Assembly (NCBI GenBank): GCA_009785865.1
Contig: WQVL01000002.1
Location: forward strand, 11,605-75,604
DNA: 64,000 nucleotides
Direction of reading: 5' to 3'
Source: Oscillospiraceae bacterium
Lineage (GTDB): Bacteria; Bacillota; Clostridia; TANB77; CAG-508
Numbering within the stretch: the first letter of the stretch is position 1; each line of letters starts with the position of its first letter. A program made the translations under genes and the position numbers. The notes beneath the pieces are model-generated. The model saw nothing but the letters and a program-made list of their open reading frames with translations, ran no database searches and was not told the origin of the DNA. Below are positions 6,003-30,993 of this stretch, piece by piece.

Positions 6003-6563
6003 TTATTTTAATATTTTATTATTTAATAAATAATAATTGGTCGCTTTATTTTTTTTGATCCATTCTTTAATGGTCTTTACTGTTTCGTTTTTTTGATTAT
6101 GTTTTACTTTCCCTTTTTTGAATTTTTCTCCTTGAAAAACATCAAAAAAAGTTTTTCGTTTTCTATCCAAAATCATTTCCTTTAGCAATTTAATCTCTTC
6201 ATTAATTTTGTTTTCTTTTAATATCTGCTTGATTTCTTCTATTGTAATTTGGTTGTCATAAAAAACATTAAATACTCCCTTAGATATTAAAAAGTTTTTT
6301 ATATCGTCATTCTCTTTCTCTAAAATGATAATAATCTCTACTCTTCTATTTATTCCTTTTATTAGATTAATCAGTTCTTCTACTGTTTTTTCTCCTGGCA
6401 ATATGCTATTCAAGCTCAAAACTTCAATTGACATTTCTCCTTCTAATACTTCAATTACACCTTCTTGATATTGAATATCTGGTAATAAAACGTTGTAAAT
6501 TTTTCCCTTTTTTAGCTCCTCATTAATTTTCGGATTTCCCATCGCTGTAATAACGTTCTTCAC
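6003..6563 (-). pseudogene. Truncated inverted duplicate of the 5' 558 bp of the CpaE-like gene at 29656..30993 (atypical-receiver domain only)
   Basis: 186-aa ORF is about 97% identical to residues 1-190 of the 445-aa ORF. It diverges after NNKI and stops. Confidence 0.6.
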
Positions 6564-7960
6564 GTTTCTCTCCTTTCCCCTTTTTTACAATAGACTAGCA
6601 ACTCCTTTTATACTTTTCTTCTGTTATGTAATCTTCATGTTTTTTCCATTCTTCTCCCTTTCTGCCTATTCTCTATTATGTTTTTCAAAGTACCTGTTCC
6701 GCATAACCTTAAACTGGCTTCTATTTTCAAAAAGAAGTGTCCTTATATTTCCTTCCCTTTTTTGTCTCTTTCGCAAACTTTGTTGCATTTGTTTTATCAA
6801 CTATATAGATTCGCTTCTTTATTATTGCTTTAAAATTAATTTGGACTATTCTTCAAATTTAATAATTATAATATTTTTTATTCTCTGCTCTATTCTTTTT
6901 TTATCTATTTCTTGTAATTTTTTTTATTTTCTAAACTATTTTTTTATTTAAATATTTATTTTAATTATTTATTTAAATTATTAATTTAAAATTAGATTAT
7001 TAATTACTAATTATTTTTATTTTATTTTTTAATTAACTTTTTTATCAATTTACTTTTCCTCTACCTTCCCAATCTCCTCATTCCTAATAATACTTTTTCT
7101 GCTAATAGTTCATAGAAATTTTTTTGCCTCCACTATTCATAGTTCTCATTTTTTTGTTTTTATGTAGACAGTTTTCTTTTTCTCTATACTCTCCTCGGGT
7201 TGTTATTTCCGAACTAATTTGCTTTCTTGTTTTATATTTAGTCTTCCTTTTTAATTGTTCTTTGACTTGCATTATGTATGCTATTTTATTTTCTCTCTCA
7301 ATTCCTTTGAGACAAAAATATTACATCGTTCTCTCATCTTTTCCATATGTTACTTCTCCACTTGATCATTGCAAGATATTAATTGATAATTAAATTGTGA
7401 CTTTAAATTGCTATTGAGCCTTTTTTTATTTTATATTAAATTTAATTTAAATATTATTATTTACTATTTAATTAAAGTATTTAATCAAGATTTATTAATT
7501 AATTAAAACATTTAATCAAGATTTTTTATTTAATTGTTTTTTATTTAACTAAAAAACCAAAGAAAATCTCTTAAAATATTTTTTAGTGTTCATTTTTGAT
7601 TAATTATTTTTATTTTATTTATATTAATTCTTTAATTATTTTTTGTTTTTTTGATTATTTATTTTATTTTTTAGTGTTTATTTTATTATCATAAAAAAAT
7701 ATAAATTAATGTTATTTTCTCTTCCTATGTTCTATCTCATCATGCTCCTACTTTGGTTTACATTTTATTTTAATTATTACAACTTGTGTCTATCTCTTTG
7801 TCTTTTATGTTTACATCTTCTCTAATTCTATCATTTTCCTGAATCTCTTCATTCCGAATAGATTTATTTAAAACATTTTTTTCTCGTGTTTTTTATTATC
7901 ATTTTATTGCTATTTTATGTGCATTTATTTTTTAACTTATGAGGCTTAATAATTTCATTT
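6003..7960 (-). repeat. Inverted copy (IR-L) of repeat R2 plus gene 5' end. Partner is about 28260..30213.
   Basis: The reverse complement of 6564..7400 aligns to 29655..28800 (for example agggagaagaatggaaaaaacatgaagattacataac). Coding part is near-identical; noncoding part is about 75-85% identical. Confidence 0.7.
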
Positions 7961-28228: not shown

Positions 28229-29655
28229 AAAACAATTCAGATAGTAAGTAGAAAATTAATTTAAAAAGTAATAAAAATTAATTTATTAAAAAATAAATTA
28301 AATAAAAAAAGGACCAAATATTTTTAGTGTATAACTTTTTTTATAAATAAAATTATCCAGTAAAAACGAACAAAGAAGTAAATAGAAATAATTAATTTGA
28401 AAAATGTCCGGACAAAAAAACCAAACAAAGGAAATAGCAAAGAAAAAGAAAATATGTAAACAAAAAGAAGTTAAATTAAGATTGCTGAATAAAGAAGATT
28501 CAGAAAAAGAGAATAAAGAAGAAATTTGAGGAGAAAGAAAGAGAGAACAAATTCACAAAAGATTACATAACAGAAGAAACAAAAAGATATGTTTAACATC
28601 TAGGAAGCCCTTGTACTATAAAAGTAAAAGATGTGAACAGATGATAGGGGAAGAAAAGGAAGAAGAAACACACATAAAAGACGAAAAGGGAAAAAATGGA
28701 AACAACAGAGGGCCGAGGATATCCTCCGGCAAAGGGAAAACAAGCATTTTAGAAGAAAAACGACAGCGATTAGTTAATAGAATTTCAAGAAAAAACAGGT
28801 AAGAAAAAACAATAAAATAGTATAGAAATTGTTTTTAAGAAAATAAATGGATGACTTTTATACAAAAGAGAAAAGAGACTCAATAGTAAAAAAGTTTTTA
28901 CTGCTCAATGACAAGACGAATTATGACCACTACAAAAAGGGGCAAAAAAGAAGAAAAGTCTGAGAGTTAAAAAAGAAGAAAAGAAGAGAAGGAAGGAGGA
29001 CTAAAGAAAGTGAGTAAATGAGTGAAAAGACATGAGCATAAAAAGTTGAGAAAAAGAATAACATGGGGAAAAAATATAGCGAACAAAAAATAGAAAGAGG
29101 CGTAAAAATTTTTAAAAAATATAAACAAGAAGCTATACTATAAAATAGGAAAAATAAATTGATAAAAAAATTAATTAAAAAATAAAATAAAAATAATTAG
29201 TAATTAATAATCTAATTTAAATTAATAATTTAAATAGATAATTAAAAAAAATAAAAAAATAAATATTAAAATAAAAAAATAGTTTAGAAAATAAAAAAAA
29301 TTAGAAAAAATAGATAAAAAAAGAATAAAGCAGAGAATAAAAAATATTATAATTATTAAATTTGAAGAATAGTCCAAATTAATTTTAAAGCAATAATAAA
29401 GAATCGAATCTATATAATTGATAAAACAAATGCAACAAAGTTTTGCGAAAGAGACAAAAAAGGGAAGAAAATATAAGGATACTTCTTTTTGACAATAGAA
29501 GTCAGTTTAAGGTTATGCGAAACAGGTACTTTGAAAATCATAATAGAGAATAGGCAGAAAGGGAGAAGAATGGAAAAAACATGAAGATTACATAACCGAA
29601 GAAAGGCATAAAAGGAGTTTCTGGTCTATTGTAAAAAAGGGGAAAGGAGAGAAAC
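28229..29655 (+). repeat. R2: AT-rich, purine-skewed noncoding repeat. Homology continues to 30213 into the gene for the inverted copy.
   Basis: About 80% identical to 44168..45070 (R3). Reverse-complement match to 6564..7960 (R1). No ORF; stops in all frames. Confidence 0.7.
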
Positions 29656-30993
29656 ATGAAAAACGTTATTACAGCGATGGGAAATCCGAAAATTAATGAG
29701 GAGCTAAAAAAGGGAAAAATTTACAACGTTTTATTGCCAGATATTCAATATCAAGAAGGCGTAATTGAAGTATTAGAAGGAGAAATGTCAATTGACGTTT
29801 TGATTTTGAATAGCATATTGCCGGGAGAAAAAACAGTAGAAGAACTGATTAATCTAATAAAAGGAATAAATAGAAGAGTAGAGATTATTATCATTTTAGA
29901 GAAAGAGAATGACGATATAAAAAACTTTTTGATATCTAAAGGAGTATTTAATGTTTTTTATGACAACCAAATTACAATAGAAGAAATCAAGCAGATATTA
30001 AAAGAAAACAAAATTCCAAATGAAATTAATGAAGAGATTAAATTGCTAAAAGAAATGATTTTGGATAGAAAACGAAAAACTTTTTTTGATGTTTTTCAAG
30101 GAGAAAAATTCAAAAAAGGGAAAGTAAAACATAATCAAAAAAACGAAACAGTAAAAACCATTAAAGGATGGATCAAAAAAAATAAAGCGATCAATTATTA
30201 TTTATTAAATAATAAAATAATAAAAGAATTGAGAAATAAAAAAAACAAAATAAATAATCAAAAAAATAAAGTAATCAGCATTATTGGAATGACAGGAGCA
30301 GGGAAAACTTTAATTATATATATGTTAGCAAAGATAATAAAAAATAAAAAAATATTAATAATTGATTTTGACTTTTCAAACAACAACATGAGTACACTTT
30401 TTGGAACCAGTAAATTACCCGAGAACACTACTAAATTATTAGAAGAAAACAAATTAAAGATTAACCATTTGAATGCTAGCAATTTAATTATTCATATAAG
30501 TAAACAATTAAAGTTAGTTTCTAGAATGAATTTAATTTTGGAGAAACATCAAGACACACAAGACTTAAAAGACATTATAAAAGAGATGATGCCAAAATAT
30601 GATTTAATTATTATTGATACATCATCAGAGACAAGCCAATCATATTTAAAGCAAATAATTAATATTAGCAATAGTGTGTTCTTTGTAGTTGTTCCAAATA
30701 TATTAGGAATAAAGAGTTCCCAAAAGTTATTAGAGGTATATATTAATAAATGGAAAATAAGAAAAGAAAAAATTAATATTATATTTAATAAATATAATAT
30801 TAATTCAATAGATAATACAGTATTAGAAAATTTGTTTTCCGAATTTAAAATCTTGGGGAAAATAAAAATGAGAAATATATATGATTTATTTTTAAATGGT
30901 AATAAACCTATAATCAGCCACAATATAAAAAAAGAATATTTAAGTATTATAAGCGAAGCATATCCTTCGGAGAAAGACAAAGTTTGTTACTGA
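29656..30993 (+). CDS. CpaE/TadZ-like protein: atypical receiver domain plus MinD/ParA-type P-loop ATPase
   Basis: N-terminal CheY-like fold lacking the phospho-Asp (DVLILNS). C-terminal GMTGAGKT ... DLIIIDTSS. Confidence 0.5.
   Translation: MKNVITAMGNPKINEELKKGKIYNVLLPDIQYQEGVIEVLEGEMSIDVLILNSILPGEKTVEELINLIKGINRRVEIIIILEKENDDIKNFLISKGVFNVFYDNQITIEEIKQILKENKIPNEINEEIKLLKEMILDRKRKTFFDVFQGEKFKKGKVKHNQKNETVKTIKGWIKKNKAINYYLLNNKIIKELRNKKNKINNQKNKVISIIGMTGAGKTLIIYMLAKIIKNKKILIIDFDFSNNNMSTLFGTSKLPENTTKLLEENKLKINHLNASNLIIHISKQLKLVSRMNLILEKHQDTQDLKDIIKEMMPKYDLIIIDTSSETSQSYLKQIINISNSVFFVVVPNILGIKSSQKLLEVYINKWKIRKEKINIIFNKYNINSIDNTVLENLFSEFKILGKIKMRNIYDLFLNGNKPIISHNIKKEYLSIISEAYPSEKDKVCY

Follow-up and report, generated by a model that had tools for sequence, protein, structure and literature searches.

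In the 64,000-nt stretch of DNA analysed here (the window), 1.1 kb of sequence occurs as two inverted copies on opposite sides of the replication origin. The window is origin-centred and comes from a metagenome-assembled genome of a termite-gut-type member of the Clostridia, which is reduced and AT-rich in character. Each copy carries a promoter-like AT block, a leader of ~470 nt and the first 186-190 codons of a P-loop ATPase gene; the copy on the right arm (copy B) is the ancestral locus, and the copy on the left arm (copy A) is derived. We consider it probable, at roughly 70%, that copy A is the product of a recent partial duplication and that the inverted pair is a passive substrate for flipping of the segment between them.

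Extent and identity of the inverted repeat

5987..7060, minus strand (core 6006-7056): copy A, derived; promoter-like AT block, leader and truncated 5' gene part, from alignment to copy B
7019..7048, minus strand: promoter-like site TTGATA-18-TAAAAT at the inner edge of copy A, by consensus match only
7061..29146: the 22,086-nt segment between the copies, invertible by recombination, from a repeat-arm search
29147..30243, plus strand (core 29150-30225): copy B, the ancestral locus, from alignment and from synteny in 22 relatives
29159..29188, plus strand: promoter-like site TTGATA-18-TAAAAT at the inner edge of copy B, by consensus match

Self-BLAST aligned copy A (5987-7060) with copy B (30243-29147) at 93.9% identity over 1099 columns, 27 of them gap columns (1682 bits). 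Base-by-base alignment placed the homologous core at 7056..6006 in A and 29150..30225 in B, with 35 substitutions and four indel events (1, 12, 1 and 12 nt) separating the two; beyond the core, identity drops to 32-50 per 100 columns. The repeat noted in the preliminary description is therefore real, although its length of 1.1 kb falls short of the 2 kb claimed there, the outer kilobase being at the level of shuffled sequence. The local alignment of 7061-7960 (reverse complement) with 28260-29146 scored 49, against 43.8 +/- 4.7 for shuffles, and 25 of 200 shuffles matched or exceeded the real score, whereas the true repeat scored 1878, against ~44 for shuffled sequence. The concern that the similarity might be low-complexity thus applies to the outer pair and not to the core, for which this score and the complex coding sequence within it rule out such an explanation. 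Promoter-like sites in the region are no more numerous than expected from shuffling.

Within the repeat, the coding part differs by 15 substitutions in 558 nt (97.3% identical) and the noncoding part by 20 in 493 nt (95.9%, or 93% with indel columns counted), the latter with a transition bias (13:7). The previously reported contrast between a 97% identical coding part and an 80% identical noncoding part is accordingly absent, and the proposal of gene conversion or selection is unsupported because it was based on that contrast. The longest runs identical between the copies are 107, 104, 75, 74 and 70 nt. Recent gene-conversion tracts were considered and set aside, as ~40 differences in 1.07 kb should, by our estimate, leave about two identical stretches of 104 nt or more by chance.

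A second, independent assembly of the same population (megahit, k=141) is 99.985-100% identical to the window. The organism is carried by these two assemblies and one Logan contig only, and a scan of JGI metagenome contigs for other samples or strains, with exact 29-mers and protein patterns, gave no match. We regard it as highly improbable that the similarity reflects AT or purine bias or a chimeric join. An artefact of this kind would fit the metagenome-assembled source, the purely compositional distal half of the claimed repeat and the breaking of the second assembly at the repeats; against it stand the score and complex coding sequence of the core, the position of all four repeat-to-unique junctions inside contigs of the second assembly, and the overlap of the left outer and inner contigs of that assembly by a 141-mer specific to copy A. 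For the 1.1-kb core, the artefact is refuted.

Purine-rich noncoding DNA

28254..29275, plus strand: purine-rich noncoding DNA upstream of copy B (the distal element), repeated in direct orientation at 44104-45114
44104..45114, plus strand: copy C, a third locus akin to the distal part of B, downstream of tRNA Lys-Glu-Thr, from BLAST and nhmmer

The purine-rich repeat had been assigned to both copies of the inverted pair. Instead, the distal part of B pairs with 44104-45114, as a direct repeat of 80.9% identity over 1034 columns (self-BLAST), and is absent from A; the last ~130 nt of the distal element (29147-29275) are the AT block common to A, B and C. BLAST without a low-complexity filter suggested a wider family of AT blocks, spread across the islands and relative L029. 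This idea was dropped because an nhmmer profile that accounts for composition recovered A, B and C and no further copies. For the remaining purine-rich blocks, the proposed homology came down to short motifs, such as the 21-mer AAGATTACATAACMGAAGAAA in four places. The noncoding islands were also rejected as known or structured RNAs on the basis of Rfam (nothing at gathering score, and one chance-level match at E<=1) and of folding z-scores of -1.25 and -0.07, and as remnants of plasmids or phages they found no match in plasmid or phage collections.

Position of the repeats relative to the origin

18931..19084: DnaA-box cluster upstream of dnaA, at the GC-skew switch, from box search and GC skew
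20542..20698: second DnaA-box cluster, between dnaA and dnaN, with three one-mismatch boxes

The cluster upstream of dnaA holds five DnaA boxes, two of them perfect (TTATCCACA) and three with one mismatch, and together with the second cluster it has the layout of a bipartite oriC; the GC-skew minimum lies near 18.8 kb. These data bear out the earlier placement of oriC at ~18.8-19.1 kb, near the midpoint between the copies. The upstream box cluster lies about 11.9 kb from the inner edge of A and 10.1 kb from that of B, so that oriC is about 1 kb off the midpoint of the 22,086-nt segment, and the copies are inverted on opposite replichores, with A on the minus strand of the left arm and B on the plus strand of the right arm. 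The almost symmetrical bracketing described before is hence correct as geometry. The near-symmetry could be due to chance: given a left-arm copy in an origin-centred window, a distance match this close has a prior of roughly 1 in 6.

The segment contains three tRNA-Ser genes, DUF4446, parB, parA, rsmG, mnmG, mnmE, jag, yidC and rnpA, as well as oriC, dnaA, dnaN, recF, gyrB, three VirB4-like ORFs and the distal noncoding island. As had been pointed out, recombination between the copies would flip this whole oriC, dnaA, dnaN, parAB and Ser-tRNA segment (7061-29146) and keep the genes co-oriented with replication.

Polarity and origin of copy A

In 22 related Clostridia, as well as in L002 and L003, the gene order is dnaA-dnaN-recF-gyrB-VirB4-like pieces-ATPase-p246-gyrA, and the ATPase of the relatives starts 15-150 nt past the VirB4-like gene. 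Copy B is ancestral because it occupies this same locus, between gyrB and gyrA and after the VirB4-like gene, in the 22 relatives. In the left arms of L029, L031 and L034, DUF4446 and tRNA-Ser are followed by a gap and then GerM, and nothing there matches the 186-aa protein of copy A; copy A is derived because it is missing from the left arm of these three relatives. The comparison with related genomes that had been proposed for the ancestral arrangement thus settles on the B site.

We infer that the duplicated unit was the 1.1 kb that runs from the promoter-like AT block through the ~470-nt leader to about codon 190 of the ATPase gene, and that it would have been copied from the site between the VirB4-like gene and gyrA into a noncoding island between tRNA-Ser and a GerM-like gene on the other replichore. 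As copy A is inverted in sequence, it is still co-oriented with replication there. Both boundaries of the duplication lie in AT-rich low-complexity DNA, namely the AT block and an AAT/AAA-rich stretch that encodes the linker of the protein. Copying may have been ectopic and primed by short or imperfect homology, for example through template switching or gene conversion. Nothing indicates mobile-element activity: among the ORFs scanned, a subset of those in the window, no transposase or recombinase was found in or adjacent to the repeat unit, and the unit had no match in plasmid and phage collections. It consists of the 5' part of the ATPase gene and noncoding DNA, and has neither the transposase nor the terminal inverted repeats of an insertion sequence or transposon.

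The truncated ORF of copy A

6003..6563, minus strand: truncated ORF of 186 aa (MCL2382782.1), from ORF calling, structure prediction and Foldseek
29656..30993, plus strand: full-length ATPase gene of 445 aa (MCL2382800.1), from domain matches and alignment

The 186-aa ORF starts with GTG, preceded by a Shine-Dalgarno sequence (AGGAG) 6 nt upstream, and its stop codon sits where homology to copy B ends. Its product matches residues 1-190 of the 445-aa protein at 95% identity and comprises a pseudo-receiver domain (residues 1-118) followed by a helical, low-complexity linker; no remnant of the ATPase domain was found downstream of copy A. The predicted structure (pLDDT 75-90 over residues 1-120) has a (beta-alpha)5 fold that Foldseek identified as Spo0F/CheY-like, with a TM score of 0.80-0.82 to Spo0F, and the description of the left copy as a truncated receiver-only ORF therefore holds at the level of predicted fold. 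However, beta-3 ends in LN-S (family consensus IIS-E) and beta-1 in MGNP. As the acceptor Asp that ends beta-3 and the acidic pair after beta-1, the hallmarks of a phosphorylatable receiver, are missing, we call the domain a pseudo-receiver.

Copy A might be more than a relic. It has been considered that the truncated copy is a functional new gene, expressing a stand-alone pseudo-receiver from its own copied promoter and leader, which would modulate the full-length ATPase or its VirB4-like partners, perhaps by competing for the same interaction surface. The ORF is intact despite ~6% divergence, its only coding indel (12 nt) is in frame, and the Shine-Dalgarno sequence and promoter-like block are kept. 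The comparison of the coding parts suggested in the preliminary description gave nine synonymous and five nonsynonymous changes and a dN/dS of 0.12 on these 14 changes, with p=2e-4 against full neutrality of both copies. In addition, the cut coincides with a domain boundary, the receiver fold is predicted confidently, and in relative L037 the gene at the ancestral locus is split by a frameshift in the same linker into a 184-aa receiver-only ORF. The intact ORF, the retained ribosome-binding site, the in-frame indel and the dN/dS value argue against a purely passive relic and weaken that part of our reading.

Several features of copy A speak against function. It carries I50S at a beta-3 position that is at least 90% conserved, lacks IPNE, four residues immediately ahead of the conserved INEEIK helix, and has GTG in place of ATG. 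A model in which A is neutral and B constrained is not clearly rejected once the transition bias is allowed for (five of 14 changes nonsynonymous, p about 0.1 by our estimate), and a second copy was not found in the relatives examined. Short homologues in databases are ambiguous as stand-alone receivers: many are probably contig-end fragments, and the one that was followed up turned out to be the gene at the ancestral locus, split by a frameshift. L026 was another candidate for a receiver-only copy, and the gene there is full length. On balance, we think that a functional gene is rather unlikely, and recent partial duplication without an acquired role remains our preferred reading of copy A.

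Recombination between the copies

Inverted repeats of 94% identity at ~12 and 10 kb from oriC would be a substrate for RecA-type recombination and a 22-kb flip. Their identical runs of 107-70 nt exceed the short tracts that homologous recombination needs, and the 6% divergence would lower its frequency through mismatch-repair anti-recombination. The pair has enough uninterrupted identity for recombination to be feasible. Such a flip should be nearly neutral, because it would leave gene dosage, both ORFs and the direction of the genes with respect to replication essentially as they are.

Both assemblies have the parental orientation only and all relatives compared have the parental gene order, no inverted arrangement or isomer being found in any relative or in the second assembly. 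The one hint of actual exchange between the copies comes from the contig ends of the second assembly, which breaks at the repeats into three contigs. Of these, the inner one (window 6540-29679) has its two ends at positions of A and B that correspond exactly by homology, where its terminal 141-mers (6540-6680 and 29539-29679) abut a distinguishing site (6681 A / 29538 T); as no identical run exceeds 107 nt, the repeat by itself would not be expected to cause branching in a graph built at k=141. These ends would be in keeping with a flip-flop switch by which the oriC segment inverts within the population and swaps which copy sits downstream of the VirB4-like operon and which downstream of the tRNA-Ser operon. 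This is indirect evidence, however, and the graph's third branch cannot be seen. A simple reciprocal crossover, when traced step by step, would yield contig ends unlike those observed, the outer-right contig begins at 29762, two bases beyond the nearest distinguishing site (29760), and strain SNPs, short gene-conversion tracts or library chimeras would give similar breaks. Moreover, neither ORF would be altered by inversion, and the repeats are 1.1 kb of paralogous gene sequence, with no recombinase gene among the ORFs scanned and no short specific inverted sites, and so do not resemble a site-specific invertible element such as an inverton or shufflon. We therefore regard such a switch as quite unlikely. 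Similarly long odds apply to the broader idea that, in the natural population, the 22-kb oriC/dnaA/parAB cassette flips between the two promoter-and-receiver modules, or these modules undergo frequent gene conversion, while the 186-aa protein modulates a clade-wide, origin-proximal set of VirB4-like, receiver-ATPase and VirD4-like genes; if this is true, uncultured gut Clostridia would have a small-scale flip-flop of the origin that is linked to a domesticated secretion-like system.

As a passive substrate, the pair belongs to a well-documented class. The dominant structural variant in bacteria is the origin-symmetric inversion, which arises through homologous recombination between repeats, among them rRNA operons, IS copies and paralogous genes (PMC9584773). 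The A/B pair is an ordinary substrate for such inversions: the copies are inverted, on opposite replichores and at similar distances from oriC, and recombination between them would keep both co-orientation and replichore balance. In contrast to the known cases, no inversion was observed in our case, the segment between the repeats measures only 22 kb and has the origin within it, and the repeat is a unique gene fragment rather than an rRNA operon or IS. In Staphylococcus aureus, the inverted hsdMS paralogues (1,748 bp, 22 SNPs) mediate a reversible inversion and small-colony-variant switching; that inversion is 1.42 Mb long and asymmetric, alters gene dosage and phenotype, and has been proven by long reads and PCR (PMC6778178). 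Both systems consist of imperfect, roughly kilobase-sized inverted paralogous gene segments that are opaque to short reads and whose distinguishing SNPs could expose crossover points, whereas the geometry here predicts a near-neutral outcome and the arrangement is known from sequence only.

Because inverted paralogues on either side of the origin are what the commonest structural variant ordinarily uses as its substrate, we regard our finding as an example rather than a principle. It illustrates how, in gut Clostridia with a reduced and AT-rich genome, part of a gene can be copied to the other side of the origin together with its promoter, and it marks a spot at which short-read metagenome-assembled genomes break or may be joined in arbitrary orientation. 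With ~35 distinguishing SNPs in 1.1 kb, the pair also lends itself as a simple test case for recognising, from metagenomic reads, whether inversion or gene conversion takes place.

The full-length ATPase and its neighbourhood

The 445-aa protein begins with a pseudo-receiver at its N-terminus, continues with a linker rich in K and N, and then has a P-loop ATPase domain that belongs to the ParA/MinD superfamily and is matched by AAA_31 and CbiA over residues 205-407. Its earlier designation as CpaE-like is justified by domain architecture only, in that CpaE/TadZ proteins likewise combine a receiver-like N-terminus lacking the acceptor Asp with a C-terminal P-loop ATPase matching AAA_31/CbiA; gene context and Walker A do not fit. 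The Walker A is GMTGAGKT (family consensus GTxGVGKS), of the classical GxxGxGKT form and not the deviant ParA/MinD type (KGGxxK[ST]). No NCBIfam family model reaches its cut-off for the ATPase (the best is minD_arch, at 32 bits against 202), and there is no sequence match in the PDB. CpaE and TadZ are encoded in Tad/Flp pilus loci, whereas this gene stands between gyrB and gyrA in a VirB4-like context, with no tad/flp genes (CpaF/TadA, TadB/TadC) nearby; its neighbours in the window and in the 22 relatives are VirB4-like ORFs, a 246-aa protein without family match, gyrB and gyrA.

The conservation around oriC of a gene set comprising VirB4-like, receiver-ATPase and VirD4-like members may itself be the more interesting biology.

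The origin region and its source

The window spans the surroundings of the replication origin in a spore-forming bacterium of the Clostridia with low GC, whose genome, labelled 'Oscillospiraceae bacterium', is metagenome-assembled. The 445-aa receiver-ATPase (MCL2382800.1) and the 186-aa protein (MCL2382782.1) are encoded on the same 82,398-nt NCBI contig. The principal features are as follows.

Left arm, minus strand: rnpA, yidC, jag, mnmE, mnmG, rsmG, parA, parB, DUF4446 and three tRNA-Ser genes (Pfam)
Left arm beyond the tRNA-Ser genes, minus strand: 2.4 kb of noncoding DNA, then the 186-aa ORF (6003-6563) and a GerM-like gene
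18931-19084 and 20542-20698: DnaA boxes of oriC
Right arm, plus strand: dnaA, dnaN, recF, gyrB, then three VirB4-like ORFs (Pfam)
Right arm after the VirB4-like ORFs, plus strand: 1.43 kb of noncoding DNA, the 445-aa ATPase gene (29656-30993), a 246-aa ORF, gyrA, ileS
25772-31777 and 39765-42806: secretion-like gene set
Repeated unit, part 1 in gene direction: AT-rich block with a promoter-like TTGATA-18-TAAAAT (29159-29188 and 7048-7019; consensus match only)
Repeated unit, part 2: purine-rich leader of ~470 nt
Repeated unit, part 3: codons 1 to 186-190 of the ATPase gene

A GC-skew switch at ~18.8 kb marks oriC along with the DnaA boxes, and together with the boxes at 18931-19084 it agrees with the position assigned in the preliminary description. 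The three VirB4-like ORFs jointly span a VirB4-like conjugation ATPase (NF045971 profile positions 2-130, 184-337 and 406-730). In the left arm, mnmG consists of two overlapping ORFs of 173 and 429 aa (12782-13303 and 13269-14558); the closest relative (L029, 52-1937) has the same C-terminal split plus one more, and the gene is intact (624 aa) in more distant relatives. A shared frameshift, a pseudogene or a truly split gene could each account for this.

A 1.1-kb inverted repeat flanks oriC

Self-BLAST returned a single strong inverted match between 5987-7060 (copy A, left arm) and 30243-29147 (copy B, right arm), with 93.9% identity over 1099 columns (1682 bits), which a repeat search resolved as four adjoining arms. 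At base level, alignment bounds the homology at 7056..6006 in A and 29150..30225 in B, with 35 substitutions and four indels (1, 12, 1 and 12 nt) between them. The size of 2 kb given in the preliminary description is an overestimate: identity drops from 83-100 per 100 columns inside the repeat to 32-50 past 7060/29147, and the claimed distal halves align locally with a score of 49, compared with 43.8 ± 4.7 for shuffles, 25 of 200 of which reach 49; the repeat is therefore 1.1 kb long. The suspicion of mere low-complexity similarity thus holds for the distal halves, whereas the 1.1-kb match is real.

The purine-rich noncoding repeat had been placed in both A and B. However, the right-hand island in its distal part (28254-29275) matches 44104-45114 (copy C), downstream of tRNA Lys-Glu-Thr, as a direct repeat at 80.9%, and only an AT-rich block of ~130 nt is common to all three loci (29147-29275, 6923-7056 and 44993-45114). 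For this 1-kb B-C repeat, one copy of which lies upstream of the ATPase gene, Rfam, plasmid and phage searches gave no match; it holds no long ORF, and its folding z-score is -1.25. Within the A/B repeat, substitution identity is 97.3% in the coding part and 95.9% in the noncoding part, and not 97% versus 80%; the 80% figure fits the B-C pair, so that the argument for gene conversion or selection was built on a mis-assigned value.

The promoter-like motif is the top such match in the region, where the frequency of these matches is not above chance. The leader gave no indication of stable structure (z = -0.07) and no Rfam match. Residues 1-118 of the encoded protein are modelled by AlphaFold (38 homologues) as a (beta-alpha)5 domain with pLDDT 75-90, which superposes on Spo0F/CheY-type receivers (TM 0.8, rmsd 2.0-2.4 Å); as the family throughout lacks the acceptor aspartate and the acidic pair, the domain is a pseudo-receiver. 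Homology between A and B stops within an AAT/AAA-rich stretch coding for a K/N-rich linker, a TAA stop directly follows in copy A, and a search downstream of copy A found no ATPase-domain remnant. The description of a truncated, receiver-only 186-aa ORF holds at the level of the fold. The label 'CpaE-like' stands for architecture only; genomic context, Walker A motif and family-model matches speak against CpaE. Inverton or shufflon and IS-pair identities for the repeat pair were considered and rejected, with no recombinase among the ORFs scanned.

Support from a second assembly

All four repeat-to-unique junctions are internal to contigs of an independent assembly (ENA ERZ27257300, megahit k=141; 99.985-100% identical to the window), and its left outer and inner contigs overlap by one 141-mer containing seven A-specific bases. 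Both loci are thus real and the window arrangement is supported, which counters an assembly artefact.

The three megahit contigs at the repeats (L001, L004 and L005) cover the window up to 6680, 6540-29679, and 29762 onward. Both ends of the inner contig fall at precisely corresponding positions in A and B, and the 141-mers at these ends (6540-6680 and 29539-29679) stop beside a distinguishing site (6681, A; 29538, T). With 107 nt as the longest identical run common to A and B, the repeat by itself should give a k=141 graph no reason to branch; a variant at 6681/29538 in both copies would give one. The breaks are a possible sign of exchange between the copies or of strain heterogeneity. Against exchange, the ends predicted from a simple reciprocal crossover differ somewhat, the third contig begins two bases off the nearest distinguishing site, and similar breaks would arise from strain SNPs, from short conversion tracts or from library chimeras. 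Only one orientation was assembled, and the inverted order is absent in the relatives mapped.

Copy B is ancestral and copy A derived

Window proteins were mapped onto the loci of 22 uncultured gut Clostridia from a genome-collection scan (including Clostridium sp. CAG:452, CAG:567 and CAG:793) and of two closer metagenomic relatives (L002 and L003). The conserved order is rnpA / dnaA dnaN recF gyrB, VirB4-like pieces, ATPase, p246 (the 246-aa ORF), gyrA, (ileS), followed on the other strand by dnaI, dnaB, the ORFs p93 and p296, and a VirD4-like gene. In every relative mapped, 15-150 nt separate the VirB4-like gene from the start of the ATPase gene, in place of the island at 28229-29655; copy B therefore occupies the ancestral position, and the 1.43-kb island preceding it is particular to this genome. 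In their left arms, the closest relative and two others (L029, L031 and L034) carry DUF4446, tRNA-Ser, a gap and a GerM-like gene, and no match to the 186-aa protein was found in these three arms, which indicates that copy A is derived. As the closest relative already has a mostly noncoding gap of 3.3 kb at this tRNA-Ser site, copy A entered a pre-existing noncoding island.

The secretion-like gene set around oriC is kept in at least 22 uncultured gut Clostridia (L003, L007-L028). Between gyrB and gyrA it comprises the VirB4-like ATPase as two or three ORFs, the receiver-ATPase and the 246-aa protein; p93, p296 and a VirD4-like coupling protein adjoin dnaB/dnaI. At the nucleotide level the VirB4-like pieces are just as similar as gyrA and gyrB (~75-78%), so the set consists of conserved genes rather than of a conjugative element in decay. 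Farther out in the right arm lie a second, canonical VirD4/TraG coupling protein (55963-57414; T4SS-DNA_transf, E=4e-78) and a LexA-like repressor (47677-48243), which may be parts of a true integrated conjugative element.

Origin of copy A and potential for inversion

The most likely reading is a recent partial duplication of the promoter, leader and receiver module, which would have been copied from the right arm to the left with the sequence inverted; divergence between A and B is ~4% at noncoding and 9% at synonymous positions. Being inverted on the opposite arm, copy A is still co-oriented with replication. Both duplication ends lie within AT-rich low-complexity DNA, and the unit could be linked neither to a transposase or recombinase among the ORFs scanned nor to any plasmid or phage sequence; our best guess is therefore ectopic copying, primed where homology was short or imperfect. 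One route might be template switching between the two forks, which would both be 10-12 kb from oriC simultaneously; gene conversion might be another. Other small ectopic copies occur near the origin in this genome, namely the B-distal/C pair and a 63-nt direct repeat (84%) upstream of the start codons of dnaN (20780-20842) and p246 (30979-31041). The latter spans the ribosome-binding region and start codon of both genes, and its second copy also encodes the last codons of the ATPase gene. A 42-nt pattern derived from it occurs only twice (0 expected), and an exact 17-mer was not found in relatives.

Copy A is ~11.9 kb and copy B ~10.1 kb away from the DnaA-box cluster, in line with the near-symmetric bracketing already described. 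A crossover between the two would invert a 22,086-nt segment containing oriC. The geometry would nearly preserve orientation and origin distance, as had been claimed for co-orientation, and the truncation point at the outer edge of the repeat would leave both ORFs unchanged; such a flip should thus be close to neutral. Origin-symmetric inversions are the commonest bacterial structural variant (PMC9584773), and the A/B pair is the standard situation behind them. It also resembles, at 1.1 kb, the imperfect hsdMS repeats of 1.7 kb by which S. aureus undergoes reversible inversion (PMC6778178). The pair is a real, well-defined inverted segmental duplication flanking oriC and a further example of a known arrangement.

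The truncated ORF

That the 186-aa ORF is functional seems to us rather unlikely. Its frame is intact, the sole coding indel being 12 nt, the ribosome-binding site is kept, the cut coincides with a domain boundary, and 9 synonymous and 5 nonsynonymous changes give a dN/dS of 0.12. Also in favour of function, a relative (L037, 92-924) likewise has a receiver-only ORF, complete at 184 aa, where an A-rich linker frameshift splits the gene at its normal locus after the VirB4-like gene, with the ATPase domain following in another frame. However, with 14 changes and a 13:7 transition bias, neutrality of copy A alone is not rejected, and copy A has I50S in the beta-3 strand at a position at least 90% conserved, has lost four residues just ahead of the INEEIK helix, which is conserved, and starts with GTG in place of ATG. 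Most of the short homologues from the representative library tell little either way, as they may be contig-end fragments.

Purine-rich islands

Three noncoding islands of 1.4-2.5 kb and 20-26% GC (6564-9022, 28229-29655 and 43886-46381) are strongly purine-rich on the leading strand, and two of them come straight after tRNA clusters with terminator-like hairpins. Also noted were a tandem duplication of ~83 nt and several palindromes that are almost perfect (8067-8312, 8749-8853, 44024-44056 and 58831-58872); the palindromes at ~8841-8881 and 44024-44056 look like tRNA-operon terminators.
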